This document shows positions 1-41,343 of a stretch of 41,343 nucleotides of DNA, piece after piece. Position numbers and translations under genes: made by a program. The DNA lies in the IMG/VR virus record IMGVR_UViG_3300021354_000013, positions 1 to 41,343 of that record; one strand, written 5' to 3'. A model generated the notes under the pieces. That model saw only the letters and a list, made by a program, of their open reading frames with translations. It was not told where the DNA came from and searched no databases. The DNA is from a virus (lineage: Duplodnaviria; Caudoviricetes). Numbering within the stretch: position 1 is the first letter of the stretch; each line of letters starts with the position of its first letter.

Positions 1-131
1 GGGCAAAAGGCCATGCAGAAAGACGCAAAAGAAAAGCGTCGGGAAGTGAGAGCTGAAGCGCGCGTCGAGGTGCTATCACAGCCGGTCTACCGCGCGTGGA
101 CATTGTTGACGGCTAAGGTTAACCCTGAGGA
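1..131. repeat. Terminal direct repeat (left copy), most likely an assembly overlap of a circular or circularly permuted genome
   Basis: nt 6-131 are identical to 41218-41343; nt 1-5 differ at 2 positions from 41213-41217. Confidence 0.95.
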
Positions 132-3100
132 TCGTCTGCCTAAACCTACTGTCACCAAGTCAAATCCTAACATAGTAACGCCGGAGATCGATTCGCTTTT
201 TGCGGCGGTCGCAAAACTAGGCGGGCTTAACAAAGCCGATCTGATATCGCAATGGGGTTTAGATCCTGCGACAAAACAATACTCAGGTGTGTTTGGTAAA
301 CCGGTGTGGCGTAGAGAAGGAGGCTTAACGGTTGATGGGATGCTCGAGGCCTTAATACCTTACGGATATCTCACCTTAGACGAACACGGTAAGCCTGAAG
401 ACAGTCGCGAATTTGAAGAGTTATTTGATCGCGAGTTGCGAGGTGAGCCACAGTATTCGGTTGAACATGCGTATGACCGCGACCAAGAGCAACGCGCCGG
501 CAGTCACATTGCTAACCCTTATGCGTTAAACGCAGTGCGCTTTGATAAAGGAGATTTGATTGGGGCCGGCGTATCGGACGAAGACCTTAACAAGCTGCAA
601 GCGTACAAGATGGTGGCAAAAAGCGACGGCATTAACCAAGACATTATTGCGGATCTTATTTTAGACGAGAACGGCAATCCTGAATTTACGTCGGGTGATG
701 ACTTGATCCAGCAGTTAATGGCCGCAACACCACCGAATGAAGAGATCGAGGCGCTGACGGACTTGCGTATGCTTGAGAAGTACGGCGACCTATCATCACC
801 TGACGCGATTGAGAAAGCGGCGGATCTTGCGATTCATAACGAAGCGCGCGTTAAGATGGTGGCCACCGAAGCCAATGCTTTGGCAAAGGCAACAGGCGGT
901 CGCAAAATACTAGCGAGCGCAGCTAAGATGTTGGCCGCAACCACCATTGGACGTAAAAAAATACGCGATCTTTTACCGAGCGTTTTTACCAATGCAGAGG
1001 TGAAAGCGGCTAAGTCTGCCGAGAAGTACATGCGCGCGAAAGATCTTGTCAACGCCGCCGCTGAGAAACGCAACCAACTTTTTAACATGTATGCGGCTAA
1101 GGCTGCGATGGACGCTAAAGACGAGGTGGAAAAAGGCCTACGCTATCTGAAGAAATTTAACGGTGTTATTAAAGGCATTGATGTTGATTACGCCGATCAG
1201 ATTGCCGCGATACTAAGCCGGTTTGATTTGCGCAAGATTAGCAATAAAGAAGTTGATCGCCGAAAATCTTTAGCTGCGTGGCTGGTCTCTCAAGAAGATG
1301 AGGGTTTTGTTCCGGATCTACCGGAGCATGTCACCAACGAAGCCTTTATCAAATCATATAAAGAACTGACGGTTGAAGAGTTTAGAGGCGTGCTGGATTC
1401 GGTCAGGCAGATTGAACACTTAGGCCGTCTTAAAAAGAAATTGCTACTGGCTAAAGACCAACGCGAGTTTGAAGCCATCCGCGATGAGATTGTGCAAAGC
1501 ATTAACGACAACTCACAAGGCCGTATCGCCAACACCCGCACTATTAACACCGGTGTTGAACAGGCTAAGAAAAAATGGGGCGCTTTTGCCTGGGGACATG
1601 CCAAAGTGGCGACCTTGGTTAAGGTGCTGGATGGTGGAAATATCGGCGGACCGGTTTGGGAATTTTTAGTAAGGCCCGCCAATGAGCGAGGTGATTGGGA
1701 AACCACGCAGCGCGCTGAGGCAACGCTTGCGCTTGCCGAGATTATGGCACCAGTGTTTAAGCTGGGTAAGATGGGCGGTAAAGGCGTAAAGTTTCCTGGT
1801 ATTGATCGCAGCTTTAACCGTGAAGCGCGTATTGCGATTGCACTTAATGTCGGTAACAAAGGCAATTTGCAACGCTTGTTAGGTGGTGAAGGCTGGAGTC
1901 TGCCGCAGATAGCACCAATCTTACAGTCTTTGACACGGGATGAATGGCTTGCTGTGCAAGCAATATGGGATCACTTTGAGACTTACCGTCCGCTGATTGC
2001 TGCAAAAGAGCGCAGAGTCTATGGTAAAGAACCTAACTGGGTAGAACCTACCCCCTTCAACATGACGACCGCAGACGGGGAAACCGTCAACCTACGCGGC
2101 GGGTATTACCCGATTAAGTATGATCCTGCGGCCAGCCAACGAGCAGAAGAACATAGCGACGCGGAAGCGGCAAAGCGCCAACTACAAGGGGCGTACACTT
2201 CAGCGACGACACGTCGCAGCTTCACCAAAGCGCGTGCAGAAGAAGTGAAAGGTAGACCTTTGCTTCACTCGTTGACTGGTGTTTATTCGGGTGTGAATGA
2301 CGTGATTCACGATCTGGCTTGGCATGAGTGGTTGATTGATACGAATCGCTTGATCAAGAATAACGCGATTGATACTGCGATTCGTCAACACTATGGACCG
2401 GAATTTAAAAACCAATTTAAGACGTGGACAAGCGCGATTGCTGAAGGTGAAAAAGGATCTGACAATACGGTTGATATTGCGCTTTCTAAAATTCGCCAAG
2501 GCGTGAGCGTATCGGGTTTAGGGTTTAACGTCATGTCTGCGGCGATGCAACCGACTGGATTTACGCAGTCTGTGTCAGTGGTAGGCGCAAAATGGATAGG
2601 TATAGGCGTTAGCCGATATTTAGCGGATATCAAAGGATCTACGCAATCCGTCAACGAAATGTCAGAGTTTATGGCCAACCGCACGCGTACTCGATTTAGA
2701 GAATTGAACGAGTTACGCAATTCGGTTGAGGATCAATCGCCGTATAAAGAATGGTTAGGCCGATACGCATACTTTTTAATGATGCGCTGCCAACAGATGG
2801 TCGATGTCCCCACCTGGATAGGCGCGTATGAGAAAGCGCAAGCCAATGGTGAGATAGAAGAACGTGCAATCGCTTTAGCCGATCAAGCCGTGATTGACTC
2901 CCAGGGCAGCGGGATGTTGAAAGATCTCTCTGCAATTGAGCGAGGTGGCGCTGCGCAAAAACTCTTTACCGTGTTTTATTCGTACATGAATACCGCGCTT
3001 AACATTGGGATTGGTAAAACGATGTCGGCGGAGATCGGGAAACGTAAAGCAAAACTAGCGGCGGATTACCTTTTGCTTTACGTTTTACCGCCGGTATTAG

Positions 3101-3513
3101 GGTTTGCTATTAAAGAAGCGCTCACCCCAACGGGTGACGATGACGACGATTATTGGGAGAAGCTACCTAAGCGTCTAGCTGCTAACCAAATCGACTATCT
3201 GATGGGTTTGATGGTGATAGTGCGCGAGTTTTCTGAGGCGGCTAAATTGATGGCCGGCGTAGAGGATCATAAGCAAGATTACCAAGGACCGGCAGGTGTG
3301 CGAATGATTGCGGATACCGTCAAGTTTGGGGAGCAATTAGGCCAAGGTGAATTTGATACGCCATTCCGCAAGGCTTTTGTCAATTTGATGGGTGATGCTT
3401 TTGCCCTACCAAGCGCTCAGATCAACCGAACTGTCACCGGAATAGAAGCGATATCCGAGGGCAAAACGTCCAATCCTGCGGCGATAGCATTCGGGTTTAA
3501 AGAGAAGCATTGA
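13..3513 (+). CDS. C-terminal 1166 aa of the giant internal virion/DNA-ejection protein (continuation of the ORF starting at 34562)
   Basis: ATG at 13 corresponds to in-frame ATG 41225 of the open frame from 34562; mostly helical sequence; position before the tail fibre as in BPP-1/epsilon15-like podoviruses. Confidence 0.9.
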   Translation: MQKDAKEKRREVRAEARVEVLSQPVYRAWTLLTAKVNPEDRLPKPTVTKSNPNIVTPEIDSLFAAVAKLGGLNKADLISQWGLDPATKQYSGVFGKPVWRREGGLTVDGMLEALIPYGYLTLDEHGKPEDSREFEELFDRELRGEPQYSVEHAYDRDQEQRAGSHIANPYALNAVRFDKGDLIGAGVSDEDLNKLQAYKMVAKSDGINQDIIADLILDENGNPEFTSGDDLIQQLMAATPPNEEIEALTDLRMLEKYGDLSSPDAIEKAADLAIHNEARVKMVATEANALAKATGGRKILASAAKMLAATTIGRKKIRDLLPSVFTNAEVKAAKSAEKYMRAKDLVNAAAEKRNQLFNMYAAKAAMDAKDEVEKGLRYLKKFNGVIKGIDVDYADQIAAILSRFDLRKISNKEVDRRKSLAAWLVSQEDEGFVPDLPEHVTNEAFIKSYKELTVEEFRGVLDSVRQIEHLGRLKKKLLLAKDQREFEAIRDEIVQSINDNSQGRIANTRTINTGVEQAKKKWGAFAWGHAKVATLVKVLDGGNIGGPVWEFLVRPANERGDWETTQRAEATLALAEIMAPVFKLGKMGGKGVKFPGIDRSFNREARIAIALNVGNKGNLQRLLGGEGWSLPQIAPILQSLTRDEWLAVQAIWDHFETYRPLIAAKERRVYGKEPNWVEPTPFNMTTADGETVNLRGGYYPIKYDPAASQRAEEHSDAEAAKRQLQGAYTSATTRRSFTKARAEEVKGRPLLHSLTGVYSGVNDVIHDLAWHEWLIDTNRLIKNNAIDTAIRQHYGPEFKNQFKTWTSAIAEGEKGSDNTVDIALSKIRQGVSVSGLGFNVMSAAMQPTGFTQSVSVVGAKWIGIGVSRYLADIKGSTQSVNEMSEFMANRTRTRFRELNELRNSVEDQSPYKEWLGRYAYFLMMRCQQMVDVPTWIGAYEKAQANGEIEERAIALADQAVIDSQGSGMLKDLSAIERGGAAQKLFTVFYSYMNTALNIGIGKTMSAEIGKRKAKLAADYLLLYVLPPVLGFAIKEALTPTGDDDDDYWEKLPKRLAANQIDYLMGLMVIVREFSEAAKLMAGVEDHKQDYQGPAGVRMIADTVKFGEQLGQGEFDTPFRKAFVNLMGDAFALPSAQINRTVTGIEAISEGKTSNPAAIAFGFKEKH

Positions 3514-3569: not shown

Positions 3570-5477
3570 ATGTCTATAGCCAGCACTACCCGTAAAGCCG
3601 GCCCGTATACAGGCAACGGCCTTACCACTATTTTTACTTTTCCGTTTAAAGTTTTTCAAGCAAGCGATTTGCTGGTTGTTCGCACAGACTTAATCGGCCT
3701 GGAAACCACATTAGCCCTTACTACGGATTACACGGTATCGCTCAACGTAAATCAAGACGCTAACCCTGGTGGTGTAGTGGTGATGAATGTTGCGCCCGCT
3801 ACTAGCTATCTGATCACGCTATCAAGTGCGGTCGCAGAATTGCAACCGGTCGTGCTGACCAACAACGGCGGATTCTATCCGTCCGTCATTAATGACGCGC
3901 TGGACCGCTTGACTATCTTGACGCAGCAGATCTCAGAACAGGTCAGTCGTGCGGTTAAGGTGAGTATCTCAAGCAGCACCAATCCCGACGATTTAATTGC
4001 ATCGGTGATATCCAACACCGCAAGCGCAGCTGCAAGTGCTGCAAGCGCCTTGGCATCCTGGCAATCGTTTGAAGGAATCTATTACGGGGTTTATGTGTCT
4101 GCACCTTCGACCGATCCTTTGGGTAATCCGATTGGTGTGGGTGATCTTTACTACAATTCATCTACGCAATCGCTTCAAATTTATACCTCGACCGGGTGGC
4201 AAGCATCGGCGCAATCTACACCGGTGAGCTACACCAACCAGACTTTCAACGGTACCGGATCACAGACTAATTTTACACTCTCTTCAACTCCGGCATCGAT
4301 CGACGCGATTGAAGTTTTTATATCAGGCATCCGTCAATATCCTACAACGAATTTCACGATTGCCGGCACCACGCTGACATTTGTAACCGCACCAGCATCC
4401 GGCACCAACAACATTCTGGTGCGATGGACATACGCTTTAGCGGTGGGAACACCTAACGACAACTCAGTGACTACAGCAAAGATCCAAAACCTTGCAGTCT
4501 CTACAGCAAAACTTGCGGATAATGCCGTCACTCCAGCTAAGTTAGCCAACTCAGGGAATGAGCTTGGCTCGCGCAATCGTTTGATCAATGGGTGTTTTAG
4601 AGTAGATCAAAGAAATAGCGGCACAGCAGTATCGCTTGCCGTTAGTGGGATCAATTACTATCTTGATCGGTGGTATGTGTATTCAGTTGGTGCTACCGGG
4701 ACAATACAACAAGACGATAATATTTCTCTTAGCGGCAAGCGTTTACGGATTAACGGCGCTACCGGAATGACTAGCGTCGCGGTGGGACAACGTATCGAGA
4801 GCATTAACTGCAAAGATCTTGCTGGTAGTACCGTGACGCTTTTCGCAATACTTTCTAATTCTTCGAATGGATCGGTATCGTGGAACGCCTACTATGCAAA
4901 TACCACTGACTCTTTTGGCACGGTTTCTTCACCCACCAGAACGCTGATTGCCGCTGGAACATTTAACCCGACGACTACCCCAACTGCGTTTAGTGCTACT
5001 TTTGCAGTGCCTTCGGCAGCGGTGACGGGTATTGAAATTATTTTTAGGGGTGGTGCGCAATCCTCTGGGTCGACGTGGTACATCGAACAAGTGCAACTTG
5101 AAAAAGGCTCAACCGCAACGCCGTTCGAATATCGACCCTACGGTGCAGAATTGGCGTTGTGTCAAAGATATTTACCGGTTTGTCGCGGAAACTATACAAA
5201 CCTAGTCGGTCAAAAGACCGCCGCGACTGCCGCGAAAGTGACTTTTACCTTTAAGACAACCGCAAGAATTGCGCCTACGGGAATAGTGTCCTCTGACTCT
5301 TTTTACGTATTGGATGCTTCAGGGGGTGTGGGTTATCCGGTGACCACCGCTGCGTTGTCAGGATCATCTATAGACGGAGCATTCATAAATCTAACAGGTA
5401 TTACGGGACTAGGCGCAACCGCGGGGCAAGCGGCAATAGCCTATGGCAGTTTTTATTTAACTGGGTGCGAACTCTAA
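3570..5477 (+). CDS. Tail fibre / receptor-binding protein
   Basis: T7 gp17-like N-terminal anchor (GPYTGNG..F.FPFKVF...DL.V; DALDRLTIL.QQ); Ser/Thr/Gly-rich; RNRLING...QLEKGSTATPFEYRP beta-sandwich-type C-terminal region. Confidence 0.85.
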   Translation: MSIASTTRKAGPYTGNGLTTIFTFPFKVFQASDLLVVRTDLIGLETTLALTTDYTVSLNVNQDANPGGVVVMNVAPATSYLITLSSAVAELQPVVLTNNGGFYPSVINDALDRLTILTQQISEQVSRAVKVSISSSTNPDDLIASVISNTASAAASAASALASWQSFEGIYYGVYVSAPSTDPLGNPIGVGDLYYNSSTQSLQIYTSTGWQASAQSTPVSYTNQTFNGTGSQTNFTLSSTPASIDAIEVFISGIRQYPTTNFTIAGTTLTFVTAPASGTNNILVRWTYALAVGTPNDNSVTTAKIQNLAVSTAKLADNAVTPAKLANSGNELGSRNRLINGCFRVDQRNSGTAVSLAVSGINYYLDRWYVYSVGATGTIQQDDNISLSGKRLRINGATGMTSVAVGQRIESINCKDLAGSTVTLFAILSNSSNGSVSWNAYYANTTDSFGTVSSPTRTLIAAGTFNPTTTPTAFSATFAVPSAAVTGIEIIFRGGAQSSGSTWYIEQVQLEKGSTATPFEYRPYGAELALCQRYLPVCRGNYTNLVGQKTAATAAKVTFTFKTTARIAPTGIVSSDSFYVLDASGGVGYPVTTAALSGSSIDGAFINLTGITGLGATAGQAAIAYGSFYLTGCEL

Positions 5478-23180: not shown

Positions 23181-23182
23181 CC

Positions 23183-25136: not shown

Positions 25137-25145
25137 GAGACCTTT

Positions 25146-28790: not shown

Positions 28791-28802
28791 AAGGAGTTTT
28801 TA

Positions 28803-29456
28803 ATGGCTACCGAAGTTGATATCTGTAATTTAGCGCTTGCGCATCTGGGGGATACGGCGACCGTTGCCAGTATTGATCCTCCCGAAGGCTCTGCGCAAGC
28901 CGAACACTGCTCGCGGTTTTATCCGATTGCGCGCGACACCTTGCTTGAGATGCACCCATGGGGTTTTGCAACTAAGCGCGTACAGCTTGCCATGTTAGGT
29001 GAATCCTGGTCGGAATGGACCTACGCTTACGCCGTGCCGAATGATGCGGTCAACATCATTGCGATCGTGACCTCAGATGCGACCGATGACTACAGCGAAG
29101 CGATCCTCACCAATCCCAACATCCCCGCCGGAGGCGCGTATGTGCCGCAACCCTTCTCGTGCGAGATCCAAGACGACGGCACGCAAGTGATCCTGACTGA
29201 TCAAGAGAACGCGGTACTGCGCTACACGGCACTCGTATCAGATACAGGGACGTTTTCACCATTATTTGTGTCTACCTTGAGCTGGCACCTAGCATCACTG
29301 TTAGCCGGTCCGATCCTTAAAGGTGAAACCGGTGCGGCCGAAGCCAAGCGCTGTCTGCAAATGATGAATGTTTACTTGTCGCAAGCCATGGAGTCGGACG
29401 CATCTCAGCGCCGCATCAATCCCAACCAGCGCGTTGCTTGGATCAGTGGGAGATAG
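28803..29456 (+). CDS. Tail tubular protein A / adaptor
   Basis: AAGGAG RBS; EVDICNLAL.HLG, HPW.FATKR..LA, W.YAY..P, F.PLF. Confidence 0.88.
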   Translation: MATEVDICNLALAHLGDTATVASIDPPEGSAQAEHCSRFYPIARDTLLEMHPWGFATKRVQLAMLGESWSEWTYAYAVPNDAVNIIAIVTSDATDDYSEAILTNPNIPAGGAYVPQPFSCEIQDDGTQVILTDQENAVLRYTALVSDTGTFSPLFVSTLSWHLASLLAGPILKGETGAAEAKRCLQMMNVYLSQAMESDASQRRINPNQRVAWISGR

Positions 29457-29458
29457 GC

Positions 29459-31504
29459 ATGGCTAACACCCGCATTTTACAAAAGTCATTCTCAGGCGGC
29501 GAGATTAGTCCGGAGATGTTTGGTCGTATCGATGACACCAAGTATCAAGCTGGCCTTGCCATTTGCCGAAACTTTATCCCCAAACCCCAAGGCCCTATTC
29601 AGAATCGTCCAGGCTTTGGCTTTGTGCGCGAGGTTAAGGATTCAACTAAGAAGGTGCGGTTAATTCCGTTTACCTATTCGACCACACAGACCATGGTCAT
29701 CGAAGTGGGTGCAGGCTACTTTCGATTCCACACGCAAGGCGCGACCTTACTCTCAGGTGCCGTGCCTTATGAGATTGCTAACCCCTACGCAGAAGCCGAT
29801 CTTTTTGATCTGCACTATGTACAGTCTGCGGACGTGCTGACCATCGTGCATCCCAACTATGCGCCTAGTGAATTGCGCCGCGTCGCCGCGCTTAACTGGA
29901 CCCTGACCACTATTTCGTTTGCCGCGCCAATCGCCGCGCCCACTGCACCAACCGCAGTGCAAACCGGTACAGGCACGACGATATCCTATTCGTATGTGGT
30001 GACTACCATTAGCACGGACGGAGTGTCTGAGTCCGCGCAATCTACCGCAGCAACCGTGAGCGGTAATTTATTTACCACGGGCAATTACATCACGATTGCC
30101 TGGGCGGCGGTCACAGGTGCTGCTCGCTATAACGTCTATAAATTGCAAGGCGGATTGTATGGCTATATCGGGCAAACGTCGGGCACTTCGATCAAAGATG
30201 ACAACATTGCGCCGGACCTAAGTAAAACCCCGCCCATCTATGATGCGGTGTTTGCCGCTACCGGTGATTACCCTGGCGCGGTGTCCTACTTTGAGCAACG
30301 CCGATGCTTTGCCGGCACGTCCAACAAGCCACAAAACATCTGGATGACCAAATCAGGCACTGAATCGGTGATGAGCTACAGCTTACCGATCCGAGACGAT
30401 GATCGCATTGCGTTTAGAGTAGCGGCACGCGAGGCCAATACCATTCGGCATATCGTACCGCTAACGCAACTATTGCTTTTAACCAGCGCTGCGGAATGGC
30501 GCGTGTCACCTGTTAACAGTGATGCGATTACGCCGACCACCATTACCGTGAGGCCACAGTCTTATGTGGGTGCCAATAACGTGCAGCCGGCGGTAATCAA
30601 CAACACGCTCTTGTATGCCGCCGCGCGCGGTGGGCATATTCGAGAATGCGCGTATAACTGGCAGGCCAACGGCTTTATCAGCGGGGATTTATCCTTGCGC
30701 GCGCCGCACCTTTTTGACAATTACGATATTAGCGATATGGCGTATGCCAAAGCGCCGCTGCCGATTGTGTGGTTCATATCCACCACCGGCAAACTGCTTG
30801 GCCTGACCTATGTGCCAGAGCAACAGATTGGCGCCTGGCATTGGCACGATACCGATGGCACGTTTGAATCGTGCGCGGTCGTAGCGGAAGGCAATGAAGA
30901 TATTTTGTACTGCGTGATTAAGCGCACCATCAACGGCGCCGACGTGCGCTATGTAGAGCGGATGGCCACTCGTCAGTTTGTAGATCCCGCCGATGCGTTT
31001 TTTGTGGATGCGGGGTTAACGTACTCGGGCGCAGCGGCCACGACAATTAGCGGGCTTACCCACCTCGAGGGTAAAACCGTTAACGTGTTAGCCGATGGCG
31101 CGGTGCATCCACAATGTGTGGTGACGAGCGGCGCAATTACGCTAGAGCAAGCCGCCAGCAAGGTGCAGATCGGGTTACCGATTACGGCGGACGCAAAAAC
31201 CCTACCGGTTGCGGCTGGCATTGATAACGGCTTTGCCCAAGGGCGATACAAAAACGTCAACAAAGCCTGGCTGCGGGTGTTCCGGTCCTCGGGCATTTTT
31301 ATCGGCCCAGACGAATATAACTTGGTCGAAGCCAAACAGCGCACTACCGAATCCTACGGCTCACCCCCTGCGCTCAAAAGCGAAGAGATCCCAATCGTCT
31401 TGTCCCCTGCATGGGCAGATAGCGGTCAGGTCTTTGTCCGGCAATCGGATCCCCTACCGTTAACCCTGGCCAGCCTCACCCTGGAAGTATCCATCGGCAG
31501 TTGA
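29459..31504 (+). CDS. Tail tubular protein B / nozzle
   Basis: SFSGGEISP, NF...QG....RPG, RLIPF, YPGAVSYFEQR, Q.DPLPLT. Confidence 0.9.
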   Translation: MANTRILQKSFSGGEISPEMFGRIDDTKYQAGLAICRNFIPKPQGPIQNRPGFGFVREVKDSTKKVRLIPFTYSTTQTMVIEVGAGYFRFHTQGATLLSGAVPYEIANPYAEADLFDLHYVQSADVLTIVHPNYAPSELRRVAALNWTLTTISFAAPIAAPTAPTAVQTGTGTTISYSYVVTTISTDGVSESAQSTAATVSGNLFTTGNYITIAWAAVTGAARYNVYKLQGGLYGYIGQTSGTSIKDDNIAPDLSKTPPIYDAVFAATGDYPGAVSYFEQRRCFAGTSNKPQNIWMTKSGTESVMSYSLPIRDDDRIAFRVAAREANTIRHIVPLTQLLLLTSAAEWRVSPVNSDAITPTTITVRPQSYVGANNVQPAVINNTLLYAAARGGHIRECAYNWQANGFISGDLSLRAPHLFDNYDISDMAYAKAPLPIVWFISTTGKLLGLTYVPEQQIGAWHWHDTDGTFESCAVVAEGNEDILYCVIKRTINGADVRYVERMATRQFVDPADAFFVDAGLTYSGAAATTISGLTHLEGKTVNVLADGAVHPQCVVTSGAITLEQAASKVQIGLPITADAKTLPVAAGIDNGFAQGRYKNVNKAWLRVFRSSGIFIGPDEYNLVEAKQRTTESYGSPPALKSEEIPIVLSPAWADSGQVFVRQSDPLPLTLASLTLEVSIGS

Positions 31505-31564: not shown

Positions 31565-32140
31565 ATGGCTTATGGTGTAGTCAACTCGTCCTTCAAAGGG
31601 CTAGGCGGTGGCGGGGGAATGGGCGGTTTAGGCGCAGGCGTCATGGCGCTGCAAATTGGCGGGATGCTTTCATCCACAATCGGATCATTCTTTAGCGCTG
31701 AAACGCAGAAATACCAACTCAAAACCCAAGCAATCATTGCGGATACCAACGCGCGTATCGCAGAGCTAGGCGCGCAGTCTGCGCTCAATCAAGGCCAACA
31801 TGAGATTGGCAACCTCACGCTTAAAGCCGGCCAACTTAAAAGCACCCAACGCACTTCAATGGCAGCGAACGGAATCGACTTAGGTGAAGGTAACGCGGCG
31901 GAGGTCTTAGCCTCAACCGAAATCATGAAAGAGGTCGATAAGAACACCATCCAAGCTAACGCCGTGCGCAGCGCATGGGGCTATCGGATGCAAGGCACGA
32001 ATTTCCAGAACGAAGCATTAACCGCGCGCAATGCGTCCAGCGCAATTTCTCCCTGGATGGCGGGCGCTTCCACAATGCTTGGCAAAGCCACGGACGTGGC
32101 ATCGAGTTGGTACATGATGAATACCATGGGTGGTAATTAA
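31565..32140 (+). CDS. Internal virion (ejection) protein, T7 gp14-like position
   Basis: Gly-rich hydrophobic N-terminus, Q...MAANGIDL..G.A, NA.R.AWGY. Confidence 0.78.
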   Translation: MAYGVVNSSFKGLGGGGGMGGLGAGVMALQIGGMLSSTIGSFFSAETQKYQLKTQAIIADTNARIAELGAQSALNQGQHEIGNLTLKAGQLKSTQRTSMAANGIDLGEGNAAEVLASTEIMKEVDKNTIQANAVRSAWGYRMQGTNFQNEALTARNASSAISPWMAGASTMLGKATDVASSWYMMNTMGGN

Positions 32141-32141
32141 A

Positions 32142-34565
32142 ATGCCTAGAGTCCCAACATACGACAGTTTTCAGGCGACCCCTAACACCTTACCGCAATC
32201 GTTTGCCAAAGCCCCTGATGTTTTAGTCGATCCAGGGCAGACCGGTAAAGTCATGGGCGAAGCGCTTACCCATGCGGGCAATACCTTTGGCAAGATCGTG
32301 CAAGACATGAACGAGACCGCCAATCAATTACGATTAGATGATGCGGCCAACCAGCTTCGAGAAGGCGCGCGTAAATTACAGTTTGATAAAGACGTCGGTT
32401 ACACCAACCTCAAAGGCAAGAGCGCGCTTGACCGGCCAGATGGCTTGTCCCTTTCAGATGAGTATGGCGGAAAACTACAAGAGCATTCGGATCAAATTGC
32501 CGCGTCTTTGGGGAATGACCAACAGCGACAAGCATTTGCGCATTTCTCTGGCGGGTTTGTACAAGGCTTTAAGAGCAATGTATCCGCGCACGAGGTGAAA
32601 GAATTTACCGATTACGGATTGTCTGTATCGGACGGAATACAAAAAGGCGCTATCGATGATATCGGCTTAAATTGGAACAATCCGGCTGCGGTCAACGATG
32701 CGGTGTCACGCATCCAGGCAGAGACCTACCGGCAAGCACAACTCTTAGGCAAGTCGGCCGAATGGCAAGACGCGCAAGCCAAAACTATGACCAGCCTAGC
32801 GCACAAGACGGCGCTGATGACGGCGCTGGATAACAACGATCCTTCCTACGCAGATAGCTATCTCAAGCGCTACGCCTCACAAATGCACGCGGACGATATT
32901 CTTACTGTAAAGGGCCATATCACCAAAGAGATGGACAACCGCATCGGGATGACCGCGTCGGCCGAAGTGATCCAAAAAATTCAACCACAGATCCAAGTGG
33001 GGGACGGGGAACGGGCCTTTAATATTCTACTAGACGCGGAAACCGGCAATAAACAATTTGCTGGCAAGTTTTACGGATTACGCCCAGACGGCACCCCAAA
33101 AGGTTCTGGGTATTTCGGCGAGCTTAAACGCCCTGATGGTGGCGTGATGACCGAGTTTAGCGTAGGTGTGAACATCAAAGGAAAGGAGATGGATATTCCG
33201 ACGCTGGTTCCTACGCTTACCCAAAAAGAAAAAGACATCATCTTGAATATTAAAGACGGTGAAAACCTGCCGGATTCAATCATTCAAAAAGCCGTAGATC
33301 ATGCAAACAAGCGCATCGATCAAGGGAAGTCTGTTTGGGCGGATACCCCACAACCCATTACTAGCGTTAAGGGTGCCGTAGGTGCTGCCCAAGTGATGCC
33401 GCCCACTGGACCGGAAGCGGCCGAGCTTGCGGGGTTGCCTTGGGATGAGAATCGATTTAAATACAACAAGGGCTATAACAAAGCCTTGGGCTTGGCGTAT
33501 TTCCAAAAGCAATTACAAGATAACAGTGGGGATTTGGCCAAAGCCTATGCCGCGTATAACGCAGGACCTGGCGCTTTAAAAGAAGCCACCAAAAAAGCCG
33601 ACAAAGAAGGCGGCGACTGGCTGTCTTACCTACCCAAAGAGACACAGGATTATGTAGCCGGCAACATGAAAGCATATGGCTCAGGTGAAGGTAAACCCCC
33701 GCGCGCCACCTTTGAAGAAATAGACGCGCAGCTGCGGGCGGATCCGCGTATTGCCGGCAATCCAGATCGATACAAGATTGCCAGGGCGGATGCTAAGCAA
33801 CGCTTTGAAGAGCAAACGCAAGCAATCAAACAGCGCGATGATGACGCGCTGGCAACCGCGCTTAAAGGTGTTGAACAAAACGGTGGGCGCTTTAGCGACC
33901 TACCGCCAAGCGTACGCGCAGCGGTACCGGTCGATAAGCGCGACGCCGTCATCAACTACGCGCAGAAAGTGGCTAAGGGGGATGACACCACCAGTCCTTG
34001 GCTCTACTCCAAGATGTCTAACGACCCCATGAAAGATCCTTACACTGGTGAAACCATGTCGGATAGCGCGTTCTACCGCTATCGTCCTGAGTTATCCGAT
34101 GCGGATTTTCGTAAGTTTACCGACGAGCGCAATAAGCGCTCTGGTAAGACAGCGGGCAGCGGTGGTCCTGGGGATCTAAATAGCGCGGCGATTAAGCAGA
34201 ACCTAGATACCAATCTCTGGAATTTAGGTATCAAACCTAATCCTAAAAGCGATTCGGACAACGAGCGCGTGGGTGCTATCCGTAAATTTGTAGATGACTA
34301 TTTTATCGCGGCGCAACGTGAAGCCGGTAAGAAATTTACCGATGCTGAAGTAGCAACACACCTAAACAATCTCTTTGCAAAAAACGAAACCTTTAAGCGT
34401 TTTTGGTCAAGCGATACCAAAGGACCGTTACTCTCAATGAAGATTGGCGACATCCCGCCTGGGGATAAAACCGCGATCAAAGAGTCTTTCAAAAAACAAG
34501 GTGTCAGCGATCCGACCAATGCCCAAGTCCTCAATGCCTTCTTTATGACCAAGGTTACTAAATGA
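32142..34565 (+). CDS. Internal virion protein with soluble lytic transglycosylase domain
   Basis: MPRVPTYD start; ETG...KGAVGAAQVMP.T, AYAAYNAGPG, LPKETQDYV. Confidence 0.88.
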   Translation: MPRVPTYDSFQATPNTLPQSFAKAPDVLVDPGQTGKVMGEALTHAGNTFGKIVQDMNETANQLRLDDAANQLREGARKLQFDKDVGYTNLKGKSALDRPDGLSLSDEYGGKLQEHSDQIAASLGNDQQRQAFAHFSGGFVQGFKSNVSAHEVKEFTDYGLSVSDGIQKGAIDDIGLNWNNPAAVNDAVSRIQAETYRQAQLLGKSAEWQDAQAKTMTSLAHKTALMTALDNNDPSYADSYLKRYASQMHADDILTVKGHITKEMDNRIGMTASAEVIQKIQPQIQVGDGERAFNILLDAETGNKQFAGKFYGLRPDGTPKGSGYFGELKRPDGGVMTEFSVGVNIKGKEMDIPTLVPTLTQKEKDIILNIKDGENLPDSIIQKAVDHANKRIDQGKSVWADTPQPITSVKGAVGAAQVMPPTGPEAAELAGLPWDENRFKYNKGYNKALGLAYFQKQLQDNSGDLAKAYAAYNAGPGALKEATKKADKEGGDWLSYLPKETQDYVAGNMKAYGSGEGKPPRATFEEIDAQLRADPRIAGNPDRYKIARADAKQRFEEQTQAIKQRDDDALATALKGVEQNGGRFSDLPPSVRAAVPVDKRDAVINYAQKVAKGDDTTSPWLYSKMSNDPMKDPYTGETMSDSAFYRYRPELSDADFRKFTDERNKRSGKTAGSGGPGDLNSAAIKQNLDTNLWNLGIKPNPKSDSDNERVGAIRKFVDDYFIAAQREAGKKFTDAEVATHLNNLFAKNETFKRFWSSDTKGPLLSMKIGDIPPGDKTAIKESFKKQGVSDPTNAQVLNAFFMTKVTK

Positions 34566-37500
34566 GCAGTGAATTTGATTCAGCCGTAACAAACGTAATT
34601 AATAACGAAACCCCTGCACCAGATAAAGCGCAAGCTGCGCGAGAAGGCTATGTGGGTGCTGTCGACACCAATCCAGATGTTTATGCGGAGATGCAACGCG
34701 TGGCGCGTCGAGTAGGCGTGCCTACCAATGTAGCGATGGATATGCCTCAAGAAGTTAAGAAGCAAGCGAGCATCGGCTCAATTAATTTTGACACACTTGC
34801 GCAAACCAATCCCGCTACTGCTTCATTGTTAGCGGACACCGACAAAGCCAAAGTCGCGCATGATGATGTGCCTAATCTACAAGCGACCGAGCGCACCTTT
34901 ATCGAAAGCGCAATAGAACCAATTCAGCGAGGCTATGCGCAAGGACGCGCGGGGCTATCGTTGATGCTGCACTCAATGGGGCTTTTCAAAGGCCTGGATG
35001 CGCAGCGCAAAGCAGCGGCTGAAGCCAACGGAATCCCTTACGATCCGACGGTGGAAACGTCGAACATGATGGCGCAAAGACAGCGCGAAATTGAAAAGTA
35101 TCCAATCCCAGAAGACATTCAAAGAGGCATGGACGAGATCAGCAAAGCGCCGGATTTTTCGTCTGCGTTTGAAAGTGCGCTTTACAACAAGCGTGCCGTA
35201 TTAGAAACCACACTGCAATCGATTGGCACCAGTTTTCCGGCGCTGGCAACAACCGCCGGCGGATCTGTCTTTGGTCCACTAGGCACTGCGACCGGTGCCG
35301 GCATGGGCAGTTTTGCGGTGGAATACGGCAGCACCATGCAAGACGTGTTAGCCGACAAGGGCATGAATCCCACCAACGCGATGGATATACACCGCGTATT
35401 AAACGATCCTACCATCATGGATGCGGCGCGGGACAAAGCGCTTAAGCGCGGGATTCCGGTTGCAATCTTTGACGCCCTTACCGCGGGGGTAGCCGGCAAA
35501 CTGTTAGCCGGTGCTAAAGCTAACCCAACAAGCGTGGCAAGTCGTGTTGGCGGCGAGCTGGCGGTACAGGCGACCGGAGGCGCAGCGGGTGAAGCGGCAG
35601 CGCAAGCGGTTACCGGCGAATATAAACCAGGTGATATTTTGCTTGAAGCATTAGCCGAATTACCTACCGGATTGGTGGAGATTCCAGGCAATTACAAAGA
35701 CGCATTAGCCAAAGCGCAGCGCTCAGAAGATAACGCGCGATTTGTTGAAACCATAAACAATCTTTCCGAAGCGAGCAAAGTTTTACAACGCGATCCAGAA
35801 ACATTTGAGGCGTTTGTTAATCACGCCGCCGAAGATGGACCTGTAGAAAAAGTATTTATTGATGCTAACGCGTTGATGCAATCGGGTGTTGCTGATCAAA
35901 TCGCAGCAGTGTCTCCCTCGGTTGCCGAACAGTTACCTTTAGCGCAAAGCACAGGCGGGCAGATTGCCATTCCTGTTGGGGAATACGCTTCTAAAATTGC
36001 ACCCACTGAGTACGCACAAGCGTTAGTCGATCATCTTAAAACAAGCCCTGAAGAATTTAGCCGCGCTGAAGCGGCAGACTTCATGCAAAACCACCAGGAA
36101 GAATTACAAAAAGAGATCGAAAGATCACTGGGCAATTCACAATTGAGCGACGAGTTTAAACAATCCACTTCACGCTTAAAGGAGAAATTCCAAACGGAGT
36201 TAGACGCGCTTGGCCACCATACTCCCGATGTCAACAAAGCGTATTCCACCTTGTTGGGGGATTTCTTTGCGGTCAACGCGGCCAAGATGGGCATGTCACC
36301 TGAAGAATTGCACAATCAGTACGCGGTCCGCTTTGCCTCAGACTTACAGCAAGGCTATGACCAAAGCCGTGTGGATATGCATTTCAAAGACGTGACCAAA
36401 AGAATTGAAGGGTTAACGATTGCTGCTAATCAGTTGAAAGAAGGCAAGATTACACGGGAAGACTACGACAGATTAGTTAACGAATTAAAACCAGTAACAC
36501 CATATGCCGAGACCCCTACACCATCTTCTCTTGAGGATATGCAAACATCTTTAACATCGGATAAGGTTCCTAAGATAGGGGAAGCGGCAAGAACTTTAAA
36601 AACAGGAGATGCGGTAGGTTTGCGTTTAGACATCCCAGCATATCGAGATCATGGCGTATGGGTTGTGTCTATTCATGGCGCACGAGCATCAGATAAAAGT
36701 GGAATGGCGGGTAAAGCCACGGGGTACGACAGTGTTGCTTCTGTTACTGATGCTCGATTTGGAATAAATGAAAACGCAGGACTTAACATCGCGGCGGGTA
36801 AATCTAAAGCAACTATAGCCACCGTGGAAGGAAAATGGAAACCAATAACACCGGAAGAAGCGCATGCTAGAGTGACAGAGGCTTTGACTGATCCAGCGTG
36901 GACCCAGGTGGGAATGGATCCAGAACGACACAGCTATTTTTACGATAGAACAACAATGGAGCCCGTCGTTAGCGCGGATGAGGTTATTCAAATCGGCCCG
37001 TTGGTTATGGCGAAGAATCCTGTTTACGCGCCCAAAAATCATTTTTTATACCAAAGCAGAAACCTACAAACAGATACTCCAGCGTTTAAGAATTGGTTCG
37101 GTCAATCTAAAGTGGTGGATGCCGAGGGTAAACCTTTGGTGGTTTATCACGGTACAGAAGCAGATTTTGATACATTTGACCTTAACAAGATGGGCCTTAA
37201 TGGCTTGGCGATCGGCCCTGGATTCTACTTTGTAAATTCTAAATTAGTTGCCAGCGGGTATGGGGATAAATCCCTTGCTGTGTATTTGAAAGCGAATAAC
37301 CCAACTCTAAGTGTTACAAAGAAAACCATTACCAAAGCACAAGTAACAAAGATCATTGAAGACATGGAAAAGGAAGATGAGTATTTTCTTTCCAACTATG
37401 GTGATATTGAATACGAAGGACGTCGTGCTGTTTTAAACGCCGCGCTTGACGATATTTACACGCAATCTAAACACGATGCTGAAATAATAGGTTCGCTAAT

Positions 37501-40500
37501 CAACGTGGGCGGCGTTGATCGGGATAGCGTTATGGAGTCTGTTATTGCTCGTACTAAAAAAGACGGGTTTATCGTTGACGCAAGCATAGCCTCTCATGCG
37601 GCAAATGAAGGCGATAAAGTTTATGTTGTTCTAACACCTACTCAAATCAAATCTGCCACCGGTAACAACGGCAACTTTGATCCTAACGATGCGAATATTT
37701 ACAATCAAAGCGCAGTGGTTGAAGGCGCTAATGCCATCACTGGCGATCTTGACCGTGTAAACCCTGACGTAAAGGACGCAGTAGAAAGCCGAATTGCCCG
37801 CATGGGTGAAGAGGAACAGCAACGTGTACGAGCAAATCTAGGGGAACATAAAGGTACTGCGTGGGCAGCTGCTGCTATCAAAGGTATGGCGTACCGCGAA
37901 ATGCTAGAACGTGCGATGGATGGCCAAGACATATCTAACCTAGAGCGAAATGCAATCTGGGGAAAGCAAGATATGGCGGCTACCAAACTTGTTAAAGCAT
38001 TTAAGAAATATCCAGAGCATGGCGCTCGTGTTCTAAAACTGCTTCTTAATGCCTATGATTTTATTGGGGGAAACCGTAAAGCTGAGAACGATGTTTCAAC
38101 ATCCTTCACCAACTGTGATCCTAGTAAAGCGTGTGCGATCCATTGTTACGCCGCGACCGGTAACGCTAGGCCAAATGAAATAGCCAAATCGGAATTTACC
38201 GAATTTATGCTAGAGCGATTTCCGCAAGAGATGGCGGATAAACTGGCTTCAGACTATCTGGCAACGGAGGCCGGTAAGGCGGGGCTATCTTTACGGTTAA
38301 ACGACAAGGGGGATCTTTCACCCGCGCAGGTGCATGTTATCGAATTGCTAAACACTAAAGGAATAGCAATTCAGGTTTTTTCAAAACGTCCGGATTTATT
38401 GCGATCTATCTCTGATCTCAATTTAAAGATGCTTTCCATTGATGGCACCAACATGGAATTGGCCGATGCAAATCCTGATTTGCGTTTAGCTGTCACGATT
38501 ACAGACGAAACCACCGAAGAGATGTTAATGCCGATACACGACCGTGTATCCGTATATTTACCGGTTAACCTTAAAGGTAAGGCAATTACCAAAGAAGAGC
38601 TTAAAGCGCGCTTTCCAAATTTATATAGCCGAATGGCAAAAGAGAATCTTTGTCCAGTGGATGGGGGGAAACTCGAAACTAAGCCAGGCACTTCGTTTGT
38701 TGATATCCGTGACAAGACCGCAGACAAAGGCGTGTGGACATGTACGGCCTGTGATCTTTATGGCGCGGCAGGATGTTTTAAAGGGGATCGGCAAACTAAC
38801 CAACGAAAAGCACAAACAATTTCTTTGTCTGATTTGACTAAAGAATTACAATTATCAAAGGTACGCAAGGAGCTTCAGTCTAACCTGGAGACACTTTTAC
38901 AATTAGGGGGAATAGATGGAGAACTTTACAGCCAACTTAGCCAAGCACTTTCTAGCGGGCAACGCGCGGTTCTCGAAATTGCTGACACCGAAAGAGAAGG
39001 CAGAGGCGCTGAAAGCGCAAGCGGCCAGACTCAAACAATCGAGGGAAGCGGAAGCGGAACTGGACAGCCTTCTGGCGGAGAATACAACCAAGGCAACATC
39101 GTTCCTTTATCAAAACGATTCAACACCAGAAAAGTAGAGTCATACTTTCAATTCGCCGGCGTACAAGCCTGGACCGCCGACACACATTCTTTAACTTCCG
39201 CCGTTGAACGTATTAAAAAAGGTGAAAACCCAGAACAAGTCCGCAAAGAAACCGGCTGGCATATTGGTGCGGATGGTATGTGGCGATTTGAGATTTCCGA
39301 CGACAAAGCGCAATTTAACACCCCATACAACGATTGGACCGCCGATCGGATTCGCGAAGAAGTAAAAGTGTATTCTAATTTCGAAGGTAAAGAAGGCACC
39401 TATAAAGCTATTTTTAGAGAGGGTACGCCGGATCATTTTGGTGCCTTTGGCCGATCCGAAGAAGAAGCAGTTAATAATGTTGTTAGAAATGTTAGAAAGA
39501 AACGATTTGCGGATGAGGGCTTTGATATCTCTAAAGTCTCTGACGGGGATGCACACGTCTTATCTCACGTTTTAAAACACCCAGAATTGTTTGATGCCTA
39601 CCCTTCTTTGTTGAACATGCGTGTGCATTTTGAAGAAAACACTTACGCTTATCGGGGAAAGCTAGATCCCGACACAGATGTGATTACTTTGGCAATTACT
39701 GGTGATGAACAGCAAATGCTGTCCACATTGTTGCACGAGATTCAGCACGCGATTCAAGAAAAAGAGGGCTTTGGCAAGGGGGGAAACTCAGATAAACAGT
39801 TTACGTACGCAGTTAAAACTGCTTTAAAGGAGCTGTCAAACCAACAACAACGAAAAATTGCGGAATGGACAAATGACAATTTTGACAAGATTGTTGATTA
39901 CAACGTCGCCGCCAAAATAGCAAGATATGGATTGATGTACGAATCCGCGCAACGACTAATTGGATACGCCAACCGCAGCGAACCGTCTGGGGTATTTCGA
40001 TTGGTAAGGCAAGAGATGCAATGGCTTTATGCGGATGAGTTTCGGGAAAATGATAAAGCACAAGATCTTCAGCGCGATTTTTATAACATTCCTAAACGCC
40101 ATAAAAAGAACGAACGAAATGCCTTTATAGGTGATATGGCGTTTCGCGCGGGGCAAGTGTTGTTAGATGAAATTGGTCCGATGTATCAAGGGATGTTTAA
40201 GAACGATCCGCGCACCTTGAAAGGGATGTTAAAGGCGCTGGAAAGGGAAGCGGACAAAAAGCGCCAAGCGTTATCTCCATTGCACGATTTGCAAAAGCAA
40301 GCGCGGACGACCGAAAACGTAAGTCGTGCGCATGCTTCCTCAACACCGTTCGATGTATATCAATCTTTAGCAGGTGAGGTGGAGGCAAGAAACACCCAAG
40401 CGCGCCAGGCAATGACACCGGAAGAGCGTCGCAATACTTCACCTAAGCAAACAGCGGATGTGCCCGTTGATAAAATTATAGTTAGATTTGGTGGTTTGGA

Positions 40501-41343
40501 GATCCAAGCACCAATGGCGTCGATTGCGGAGCAGGCAACCTTTGACCAAGGCGCCGCCGTCAACCGAGGAAGTTTTAACCCAACCAACCTAACAATCTCG
40601 CTCTTAAAGAACGCGGATCTTTCGACGTTCTTACATGAGACAGGGCATTTCTTCTTAGAAATGCAAACGGATCTGGCTGCAAGGCTAGAACAGGAAGCTG
40701 GACTTTTTGGCATAGAAAACCTAAAGCCTGGCGAACAGCAGATTATCAAAGATGCTAATGCCATTTTAAATTGGTTTGGTTTACAAGATCTGGATACCTG
40801 GCACCGCATGACATTAGAAGAGAAGCGCGGATTCCATGAGCAATTTGCGCGCGGCTTTGAAGCCTATCTGTTTGAAGGTAATGCGCCAAGCATTGAACTT
40901 CAACCCTTATTCCAACGCTTTAAAGAATGGCTAAAACGCGTTTATAAATCCATCGAGGCGCTTAATGTTGAGTTGACCGATGAGGTGAGAGGCGTGTTTG
41001 ATCGCATGATTGCATCAGAAGAGCAGATCCAACTTGCAGAGCAAGCGCGCAGTATGATGCCTCTTTTCACGACACTCGATGCGGCACCCATGACGGCCGA
41101 TGAGTTTAGGGAATATCAGAACCAACAGCAAGAAGCGACTGCGACCGCCGTTGATGAACTCGACGCGCGGGGATTGCGTGACATGAAATGGCTGCGCAAC
41201 GCGCGAAGCAAGGTGCTAAAGGCCATGCAGAAAGACGCAAAAGAAAAGCGTCGGGAAGTGAGAGCTGAAGCGCGCGTCGAGGTGCTATCACAGCCGGTCT
41301 ACCGCGCGTGGACATTGTTGACGGCTAAGGTTAACCCTGAGGA
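34562..41343 (+). CDS. Giant internal virion / polyvalent protein, ~3387 aa across the circular junction (34562 to 3513); domains: unknown, ADP-ribosyltransferase, Gp88-like Fe-S, LPD23 plus zincin, second HExxH
   Basis: ATGA overlap with the SLT gene stop; the frame runs to the window end (no stop-terminated ORF in this frame in the track; segments translated by hand are open) and is in frame with the ATG of 13..3513. Confidence 0.9.
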   Translation, partial: MSSEFDSAVTNVINNETPAPDKAQAAREGYVGAVDTNPDVYAEMQRVARRVGVPTNVAMDMPQEVKKQASIGSINFDTLAQTNPATASLLADTDKAKVAHDDVPNLQATERTFIESAIEPIQRGYAQGRAGLSLMLHSMGLFKGLDAQRKAAAEANGIPYDPTVETSNMMAQRQREIEKYPIPEDIQRGMDEISKAPDFSSAFESALYNKRAVLETTLQSIGTSFPALATTAGGSVFGPLGTATGAGMGSFAVEYGSTMQDVLADKGMNPTNAMDIHRVLNDPTIMDAARDKALKRGIPVAIFDALTAGVAGKLLAGAKANPTSVASRVGGELAVQATGGAAGEAAAQAVTGEYKPGDILLEALAELPTGLVEIPGNYKDALAKAQRSEDNARFVETINNLSEASKVLQRDPETFEAFVNHAAEDGPVEKVFIDANALMQSGVADQIAAVSPSVAEQLPLAQSTGGQIAIPVGEYASKIAPTEYAQALVDHLKTSPEEFSRAEAADFMQNHQEELQKEIERSLGNSQLSDEFKQSTSRLKEKFQTELDALGHHTPDVNKAYSTLLGDFFAVNAAKMGMSPEELHNQYAVRFASDLQQGYDQSRVDMHFKDVTKRIEGLTIAANQLKEGKITREDYDRLVNELKPVTPYAETPTPSSLEDMQTSLTSDKVPKIGEAARTLKTGDAVGLRLDIPAYRDHGVWVVSIHGARASDKSGMAGKATGYDSVASVTDARFGINENAGLNIAAGKSKATIATVEGKWKPITPEEAHARVTEALTDPAWTQVGMDPERHSYFYDRTTMEPVVSADEVIQIGPLVMAKNPVYAPKNHFLYQSRNLQTDTPAFKNWFGQSKVVDAEGKPLVVYHGTEADFDTFDLNKMGLNGLAIGPGFYFVNSKLVASGYGDKSLAVYLKANNPTLSVTKKTITKAQVTKIIEDMEKEDEYFLSNYGDIEYEGRRAVLNAALDDIYTQSKHDAEIIGSLINVGGVDRDSVMESVIARTKKDGFIVDASIASHAANEGDKVYVVLTPTQIKSATGNNGNFDPNDANIYNQSAVVEGANAITGDLDRVNPDVKDAVESRIARMGEEEQQRVRANLGEHKGTAWAAAAIKGMAYREMLERAMDGQDISNLERNAIWGKQDMAATKLVKAFKKYPEHGARVLKLLLNAYDFIGGNRKAENDVSTSFTNCDPSKACAIHCYAATGNARPNEIAKSEFTEFMLERFPQEMADKLASDYLATEAGKAGLSLRLNDKGDLSPAQVHVIELLNTKGIAIQVFSKRPDLLRSISDLNLKMLSIDGTNMELADANPDLRLAVTITDETTEEMLMPIHDRVSVYLPVNLKGKAITKEELKARFPNLYSRMAKENLCPVDGGKLETKPGTSFVDIRDKTADKGVWTCTACDLYGAAGCFKGDRQTNQRKAQTISLSDLTKELQLSKVRKELQSNLETLLQLGGIDGELYSQLSQALSSGQRAVLEIADTEREGRGAESASGQTQTIEGSGSGTGQPSGGEYNQGNIVPLSKRFNTRKVESYFQFAGVQAWTADTHSLTSAVERIKKGENPEQVRKETGWHIGADGMWRFEISDDKAQFNTPYNDWTADRIREEVKVYSNFEGKEGTYKAIFREGTPDHFGAFGRSEEEAVNNVVRNVRKKRFADEGFDISKVSDGDAHVLSHVLKHPELFDAYPSLLNMRVHFEENTYAYRGKLDPDTDVITLAITGDEQQMLSTLLHEIQHAIQEKEGFGKGGNSDKQFTYAVKTALKELSNQQQRKIAEWTNDNFDKIVDYNVAAKIARYGLMYESAQRLIGYANRSEPSGVFRLVRQEMQWLYADEFRENDKAQDLQRDFYNIPKRHKKNERNAFIGDMAFRAGQVLLDEIGPMYQGMFKNDPRTLKGMLKALEREADKKRQALSPLHDLQKQARTTENVSRAHASSTPFDVYQSLAGEVEARNTQARQAMTPEERRNTSPKQTADVPVDKIIVRFGGLEIQAPMASIAEQATFDQGAAVNRGSFNPTNLTISLLKNADLSTFLHETGHFFLEMQTDLAARLEQEAGLFGIENLKPGEQQIIKDANAILNWFGLQDLDTWHRMTLEEKRGFHEQFARGFEAYLFEGNAPSIELQPLFQRFKEWLKRVYKSIEALNVELTDEVRGVFDRMIASEEQIQLAEQARSMMPLFTTLDAAPMTADEFREYQNQQQEATATAVDELDARGLRDMKWLRNARSKVLKAMQKDAKEKRREVRAEARVEVLSQPVYRAWTLLTAKVNPE
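38916..39137 (+). CDS. Candidate overprinted 73-aa helical protein inside the giant gene
   Basis: AGGGGG 5 nt before ATG; TACAAT at 38898; host frame here is largely a Gly/Ser linker. Confidence 0.45.
   Translation: MENFTANLAKHFLAGNARFSKLLTPKEKAEALKAQAARLKQSREAEAELDSLLAENTTKATSFLYQNDSTPEK
41213..41343. repeat. Terminal direct repeat (right copy)
   Basis: Matches nt 1-131. Confidence 0.95.

Follow-up and report, generated by a model that had tools for sequence, protein, structure and literature searches.

The locus described here raises the question of what a cysteine-rich domain resembling gp88 of mycobacteriophage L5 is doing inside a giant virion protein. The domain lies in virus record IMGVR_UViG_3300021354_000013 (Duplodnaviria; Caudoviricetes), whose full 41,343 nt are the stretch that we analysed and call the window, and belongs to an open reading frame (ORF) starting at position 34562. 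A first-pass annotation, made from the sequence letters, had proposed a Gp88-like, radical S-adenosylmethionine (SAM) iron-sulphur (Fe-S) domain carried as virion cargo. We tentatively favour a reading in which a GP88-family, predicted radical-SAM-type Fe-S domain is held in a T7 gp16-type virion protein, would likely be injected, and would act on DNA early in infection against host defence; taken as a whole, this is possible rather than probable.

The motifs listed by that annotation were all found in frame with the ORF starting at 34562: GGNRK at 38066, CDPSKACAIHCYA at 38114-38152, LRLNDKGD at 38291, FSKRP at 38378 and MLSID at 38429, followed on the C-terminal side by CP at 38651 and CTAC-x7-C at 38741-38776. 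The parts of the domain are:

37709..38059, plus strand: helical subdomain at the N-terminus, which accompanies the enzyme domain in 131 of 137 homologues and for which L5 gp88 showed no counterpart
38060..38566, plus strand: GP88-like core, a predicted six-stranded partial barrel with an invariant Lys (38078), the Cys triad, R..(D/E).G(D/E), F(S/T)K, S.D and LP
38114..38152, plus strand: Cx5Cx3C-YA triad, predicted to be a SAM-binding [4Fe-4S] site
38651..38776, plus strand: CP...WxCxxC-x7-C four-Cys site, predicted to be a second metal centre, Fe-S or Zn

The bare Cx5Cx3C pattern occurs five times in the six-frame translation of the window and is weak by itself; despite this, the complete domain stands, at the level of sequence, far beyond chance. 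All seven Cys of the first 2,260 residues of the giant ORF fall inside it, and the 1,170-residue continuation of the ORF (see below) holds a single one. Conservation was followed in 137 homologues covering all motif columns (the 150 listed minus 13 partial ones), and 135 of them keep all seven Cys. Among the 131 full-cover homologues, Cys makes up 2.1% of the domain as against 0.06% of the remainder of the same proteins, and 128 have the Cx5Cx3C spacing. In domain numbering, K124, Y147, R196, G201, F224 and S243 are invariant in the 137, position 202 is D or E in every one, D245 is found in 136 and K226 in 132; the residue before the third Cys is F, Y or H in 114. Three pairs with close relatives indicate purifying selection, the proportion of nonsynonymous differences (pN) being 0.11-0.19 and that of synonymous ones (pS) 0.86-0.94, which is saturated, and the identity to these relatives is 64-90% in the domain as against 0-42% in the ADP-ribosyltransferase (ART) region just upstream. 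A member from a separate search (L028:9899-10993), lying in an ORF of more than 6,900 amino acids, keeps the Cys triad and has lost the last three Cys; this natural variant could show whether the second metal site is required.

The kinship with GP88 that the first-pass annotation had proposed is borne out by several comparisons. The domain alone scores 24.9 bits against Pfam PF17338 (gathering cut-off 24.4), and 25.4 bits in a genome search in which none of 14 control genomes matched; the whole 2,260-residue protein scores 22.4 bits, under the cut-off. Eighteen of 20 aligned members match PF17338 at E<=1 (best E 1.8e-7), and hhalign against a profile of seven stand-alone GP88 proteins gives a probability of 93.7 and E 1.8e-7 over 134 columns. 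Further, the top three ESM Atlas clusters are GP88 (0.95-0.96) and the top named BFVD matches are GP88-labelled, including a 1,122-residue piece of a giant protein (E 4e-24). On these sequence and model comparisons the domain is a member of the GP88 family. In L5, the stand-alone gene 88 comes second among the ORFs downstream of the early promoter Pleft, and in several Streptomyces phages GP88 is found at about gene 8, with two copies per record, from which we infer terminal repeats. Therefore, GP88 proteins seem to come in one of two settings, early expression or a place within an injected protein. L5 gp88 matches 396 of 50,697 phage records, and stand-alone GP88 is present in soil and gut viruses.

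The protein that carries the domain resembles known ejection proteins. The last 126 nt of the window (41218-41343) repeat positions 6-131, and because of this the record, of 94% CheckV completeness, is likely a complete circular assembly and the giant ORF continues in 1-3513, reaching about 3,387 residues. Thus the giant frame of the first-pass annotation does hold the motifs and starts at 34562, and the window edge is not its end. Its features are:

34562..41343, plus strand: first 2,260 residues of the giant polyvalent ORF, a Bbp10 orthologue of T7 gp16/IVP-D type
1..3513, plus strand: C-terminal continuation, from the 126-nt terminal overlap, with 66% identity to Bbp10 residues 1079-2050
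34640..34900, plus strand: LPD22 domain, N-terminal in the giant protein (Pfam E 7.8e-20)
36704..36988, plus strand: weak L5 gp82-like domain, under the cut-off (Pfam PF25735 E 0.0013; PHROG 586 E 5e-4)
37118..37678, plus strand: ART-PolyVal domain, 10 residues upstream of the GP88-like domain (Pfam E 1.4e-22)
39146..39775, plus strand: LPD23 and then a zincin-like metallopeptidase, with HExxH at 39734 and a further HExxH at 40634

The giant protein aligns with BPP-1 Bbp10 in four blocks of 42-66% identity, and its residues 721-1994, an insert of about 1,270 residues, stand in place of 28 residues of Bbp10. The insert comprises the weak gp82-like domain, ART-PolyVal, the GP88-like domain, LPD23 and the zincin. 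LPD22, ART-PolyVal, LPD23 and DUF6782 exceed their Pfam cut-offs, and the protein thus combines several unrelated effector domains with LPDs and a zincin in one large polypeptide, the composition of polyvalent proteins. Genes 82 and 88 share one early region in L5, and the insert holds domains resembling both products, the former weakly. Five flanking genes that were tested match Bbp14-11 and Bbp9, with the order kept:

28773-29456, plus strand: tail tube A, upstream virion gene, orthologue within the Bbp14-Bbp11 run
29438-31504, plus strand: tail tube B, likewise an upstream virion gene with its orthologue in that run
31565-32140, plus strand: gp14-like internal virion protein, orthologue in the same run
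32130-34565, plus strand: SLT-bearing protein, orthologue in the same run
3570..5477, plus strand: tail fibre gene, immediately following the giant ORF, at the Bbp9 position

Table 2 of Hardies et al. 2016 (PMC4819975), in the accessible text, gives Bbp10 as a homologue of T7 IVP-D, a class proposed there to bring passenger enzymes into the cytoplasm. Both marks of the class, homology to a recognised IVP-D and a position after tube B, IVP-B and IVP-C, are found in the giant ORF. Orthology with Bbp10 and synteny thus agree with the proposal that the domain is part of an ejection-type protein.

Whether the domain is a radical-SAM enzyme was approached through two AlphaFold2 models (predicted local distance difference test 84.3 for the full domain and 79.2 for the core). 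In both, N-terminal helices precede six strand positions, and the Cys triad follows the first of these, in the full model a bridge of only 2 residues; the four-Cys tail at the C-terminal end has lower confidence in the second model. The models were compared with 48,161 representative PDB chains, the best 50 rows being listed for each. For the full model the first 16 of these rows are all radical-SAM enzymes (Z 6.2-7.7), as are the first 15 for the core (Z 7.1-8.3), at root-mean-square deviations of 3.4-5.5 Å and with amidohydrolase and chitinase barrels close behind. A specific assignment to spore photoproduct lyase (SPL), TYW1 or viperin was discarded because the top rows are tied and their order shifts between models. 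Likeness to the radical-SAM superfamily would reside in the predicted partial barrel, the three Cys after strand 1 and the aromatic residue before the third Cys, with a possible auxiliary cluster at the C-terminus as in the twitch domains of these enzymes. The conserved G201, D/E202, S243 and D245 are at the ends of modelled strands 2-4, which we take to be the places of the SAM-binding motifs in radical-SAM enzymes.

Sequence searches gave no match of the domain in Pfam Radical_SAM, PHROGs or NCBIfam, and PDB chains, queried with the domain and with two profiles, yielded no significant similarity (best E 0.34). The nearest named family apart from GP88 is DUF5131 (PF07505, Gp37/Gp68), to which BFVD points with a probability of 0.99 and E 0.06; once GP88 is set aside, the nearest named ESM Atlas clusters are likewise DUF5131 (0.78), a lead only. 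In the available text of the RadicalSAM.org paper (PMC9477430), DUF5131 (CX6CX2C) is a listed radical-SAM subgroup and shares Megacluster 5 with SPL. The domain has no PF07505 match, and its Cx5Cx3C spacing differs from that of DUF5131. From the models, we consider it quite probable that the domain works like a radical-SAM enzyme, and keep it outside the canonical family. What stands of the radical-SAM-like fold proposed earlier is a predicted six-stranded partial barrel with radical-SAM enzymes in the top rows; its Z-scores reach no more than 8.3 and its triad is not CX3CX2C.

To see in what company the domain is found, a profile of 20 sequences was searched against 1.84 billion representatives. 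It recovered 205 clusters at E<=0.001, of which 149 also reached E<=1e-30. Among the best 150 of the 205, 127 are at least 1,000 residues long and 113 at least 2,000 (median 2,744), and most clade members are in polyvalent proteins of 2,000-7,000 residues. The carriers further hold LPD38, RadC, ddrB-ParB, InPase, PBECR1, kinase and C5-methylase domains, the last in 7 of the 113. Genome-bin records with the domain are titled with both aerobic and anaerobic taxa. A search for proteins of nearly the domain's length gave five, all on contigs under 2 kb and probably fragments, and was set aside. We then examined 38 of 66 loci, re-cuts and obvious duplicates having been dropped (L053 and L066 still resemble one phage). 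At 34 of the 38 the domain is in an ORF of at least 1,400 residues, and at 18 it is flanked by a gene homologous to tube B, the gp14-like protein or the fibre of the window, the rest being too short or too divergent for their neighbours to be judged. At one locus outside the length pattern (L008:8924-14399) the giant gene is split, an 805-residue ORF ending just past the GP88 domain and being followed by one of 1,018 residues, in the usual operon position. The others are L056:7101-8618 (506 residues), with topoisomerase IB, a PPDK-like protein and two DSP phosphatases as neighbours, L058:9263-12289, and L057:3397-10681, a stand-alone member of 301 residues that shares a run of same-strand genes with RadC, an M28 peptidase, DUF932 and an integrase. 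Members outside IVP-D (L056, L058 and P0139) start with short Gly/Pro/His-rich motifs, which we take to resemble the N-termini of head-packaged phage effectors, and by that analogy they may be virion cargo too.

In a FastTree phylogeny, Bbp10-type and LPD38-type carriers are mixed almost randomly (17 changes against 20.2 when shuffled, 35 of 500 shuffles being as low as observed, with 64 rows of other types left out). Therefore, as judged from this tree, the module has moved repeatedly between scaffolds.

How such a domain would work can be set out in four steps. The first is the anatomy read from the sequence, that is, a GP88-kin domain with its motifs inside a Bbp10 orthologue. In the second, which we hold to be rather probable, the partial barrel predicted above would bind a [4Fe-4S] cluster and SAM through the Cys triad and make a 5'-deoxyadenosyl radical, next to a second, four-Cys metal site. 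In the third, somewhat less firm and nevertheless likely, the polyprotein would be made late, packaged in few copies, ejected and refolded in the host. We infer delivery because of the Bbp10 orthology, the gene order, the precedent of IVP-D passengers and the 34 and 18 of 38 loci just described. In T7, ejected proteins at least partly unfold to pass the tail; therefore the simplest route would be for the Fe-S machinery of the host to load the cluster once the protein is inside. The domain may then be cut free by the in-line zincin. In the fourth step, for which we see about an even chance, the substrate would be nucleic acid, most simply DNA passing the ejected protein, with hydrogen abstraction at a base or sugar. 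An anionic substrate is suggested because K124 and R196 are invariant in 137 of 137 homologues and K226 is present in 132, and early action because L5 gene 88 is the second ORF downstream of Pleft. The purpose would be to blunt host defence by means of SAM-derived radicals on DNA.

A role near DNA is consistent with the partner domains. RadC/JAB is found in 41 of the 113 carriers of at least 2,000 residues, in 25 of these within 400 residues downstream. It is more frequent in carriers (41/115) than in control clusters (3/34; Fisher p 0.002), and in LPD38-type carriers it reaches 13/22 (p 1e-4 against the control), the control being 119 LPD38-type proteins in 34 clusters without the GP88-like domain and thus a single scaffold family. 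In the available text of Iyer et al. 2017 (PMC5512222), RadC is predicted to process nucleic acids or nucleotides, and among polyvalent proteins it is confined to those of conjugative elements, whereas here it is common in phage ones. Copies with an intact HxHP..S..D are common in phage giants (P0031, P0038, P0046, P0072, L060:4346-17128 and L063:2501-14851), often 137-237 residues after the GP88 domain. An obligate partnership was rejected, RadC being absent from 74 of 115 carriers and from the window's protein. We regard as possible, with somewhat more doubt, the wider proposal that a widespread class of podophages injects an apo radical-SAM domain that is loaded by host Fe-S machinery and carries out radical chemistry on incoming or host DNA before phage genes are expressed, often together with RadC/JAB.

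Several observations weigh against radical chemistry on DNA in the newly infected cell. Radical-SAM clusters are oxygen-labile, which is awkward for storage in a virion. The best Z-scores are merely 7.7 and 8.3, the first other barrel for the core model is nearly tied at 7.1, and, by the structure tool's own caution, models with no counterpart commonly reach Z of 7-8. Searched against the PDB with Foldseek, neither model had a match at E<=0.001, and the top rows were barrels of other kinds. The superfamily is defined by CX3CX2C in the accessible text of the RadicalSAM.org paper (PMC9477430), where the variants quoted all end in CX2C, and the Cx5Cx3C of the domain departs from that definition and ends in CX3C. 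The RadC profile was built from the carriers themselves, inheritance accounts for part of the RadC excess (23 changes on the tree, compared with 33.4 when shuffled), the window's own giant protein has no RadC, and no methyltransferase match was found among the window ORFs scanned. When the domain was compared by tblastn with 50,697 phage records, nothing matched at E<=1, and hence no cultured carrier was found.

The basic residues, moreover, fit free nucleotides equally well as DNA. An injected radical-SAM enzyme could alter a defence signal or a (deoxy)nucleoside triphosphate, as viperin, MoaA and QueE act on small substrates, and all three are among the tied top rows; polyvalent proteins also carry nucleotide-metabolism domains, with InPase in 11 of 113 carriers. 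Such partners are not enriched, however, InPase being found in 28 of the 119 control proteins, and a few injected copies of a slow enzyme would poorly drain a pool, so that we give a free nucleotide substrate a low probability. The oxygen and unfolding problems would be sidestepped if the domain acted in the producer cell, on progeny DNA or virion proteins around packaging, or were cut off and never injected. The gene does lie in a late structural operon, where clusters and reductant are at hand, and the polyprotein could be processed through its two HExxH motifs. Fusion to an ejection protein would then be needless, yet 113 of the 150 best listed homologues are in proteins of at least 2,000 residues, and the stand-alone L5 GP88 lies in an early transcript region; we find this alternative unlikely.

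The modest Z-scores and the non-canonical Cys spacing also fit a non-radical domain that binds Zn or Fe-S, perhaps with SAM, as a sponge, sensor or structural unit, and the C-terminal Cys set has weak similarity to the zinc-ribbon protein L37ae (E 0.34-1.8). We judge it improbable, as many invariant polar residues besides Cys (K, Y, E, R, G-D/E, S-K, S-D) look catalytic. Its SAM-depleting variant is unlikely on copy number, few copies per virion being unable to soak up the cellular SAM pool, and uncoupled SAM cleavage by radical-SAM enzymes is slow compared with that of phage SAM lyases. Of the three functions first suggested, modification of DNA or nucleotides, destruction of a defence signal and consumption of SAM, action on DNA has thus gained some contextual support and SAM consumption is the weakest.

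A protein substrate, either a host protein or a part of the polyprotein, is what activating and SPASM/twitch enzymes would suggest: the tied rows include pyruvate formate-lyase activating enzyme, SuiB, SkfB and anSME, the anSME alignment covers the C-terminal Cys region, and an ART domain adjoins. The ART domain is not enriched (41/115 carriers against 9/34 control clusters) and no conserved peptide partner was seen in the 38 loci, which leaves a protein substrate quite improbable. Coupling to the neighbouring ART was itself dropped for lack of enrichment over the controls, the 66/127 of a looser, window-seeded profile having had no control. An SPL-like enzyme repairing ultraviolet lesions in densely packed virion DNA is very improbable: SPL is row 1 for the full model (Z 7.7) and shares the megacluster of DUF5131, but it drops to row 15 for the core, where a difference of up to 1 Z counts as a tie, soil and gut viruses have stand-alone GP88, and the domain has no Cys after strand 2, where SPL carries its hydrogen donor.

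The remainder of the window is that of a BPP-1-like podophage, with terminase, portal (PF12236), capsid GP7, Bbp16, Bbp19 and tail tubes, besides the T7 gp14-like protein, SLT protein, giant ORF and tail fibre. Between the portal and scaffold genes (22601-25649) there is a run of small ORFs sharing a 'VTPSDSTDL'-like segment, together with a 463-residue protein that has no Pfam or PHROG match; these are probably head decoration or fibre proteins. A GNAT acetyltransferase (19714-20172) is placed between terminase and portal and not at the IVP-A position after tube B.

Injected phage cargo is known to include polymerases, methylases, ADP-ribosyltransferases, proteases and nucleases, and no report of an Fe-S radical enzyme among it was found in the literature searched. 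The first-pass statement that none had been described within an ejection protein likewise met no counter-example in the literature within reach, that is, outside subscription journals and the supplements of Iyer et al. 2017. The main text of that paper (PMC5512222) has no occurrence of 'radical', 'gp88', 'Fe-S' or 'cysteine', and its supplements may list the domain; 'radical' is absent from PMC9503650 and PMC7824862, mentions in PMC13434306 and PMC10853773 are unrelated to a GP88-type domain, and the accessible parts of PMC10386132, PMC2884959 and bioRxiv 2021.05.28.446129 hold nothing further on such cargo. In UniProt, at least one giant phage protein bears the automatic label 'Gene product 88 domain-containing'. 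The parts are known, therefore (GP88 in Pfam, polyvalent proteins, passenger domains in IVP-D), and neither the combination of GP88 with IVP-D nor a radical-SAM-like reading of GP88 was found in print. The domain would add to the radical-SAM-like proteins a branch with a Cx5-6Cx3C motif outside the canonical definition, and points the large, uncharacterised GP88 family toward an early-infection role, testable in cultured phages. If an apo radical-SAM enzyme is indeed injected, phage counter-defence in the first minute would extend to radical chemistry, a new chemistry for this purpose and a function for the whole family, and the question would arise of how an oxygen-sensitive cofactor reaches a protein threaded through a tail.

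Compared with known systems, the window shares with Bbp10/IVP-D phages the gene order tube A, tube B, IVP-B, SLT protein, giant protein and fibre, and differs from Bbp10 (2,052 residues) and Carin1 gp32 in that these have no GP88-like domain. The IVP-D passengers named in the available text of Hardies et al. (PMC4819975) are lysozymes, an RNA polymerase and a methylase, with N4 vRNAP and H66 gp60 as passenger carriers and no Fe-S radical enzyme among those of T7 gp16/IVP-D type, whereas the window's domain is predicted to be one. With the polyvalent phage proteins of Iyer et al. 2017 (PMC5512222, as far as its text is available), the giant protein shares its multidomain build, the LPD22, ART-PolyVal, LPD23 and zincin domains and a place in a virion operon; there, the zincin is proposed to cleave such proteins into units. 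Finally, the domain and L5 gp88, itself uncharacterised, have the same order of motifs: an N-terminal Lys, three Cys followed by YA, R..xGD, aromatic-S/T-K/R, S.D, CP and CxxC. L5 gp88 is a stand-alone gene product of 239 residues with Cx6Cx3C and CP...CxxCxxC, whereas the clade of the window has Cx5Cx3C, CP...CxxC-x7-C and a helical N-terminal part of about 115 residues, and is mostly found inside giant virion-type proteins.

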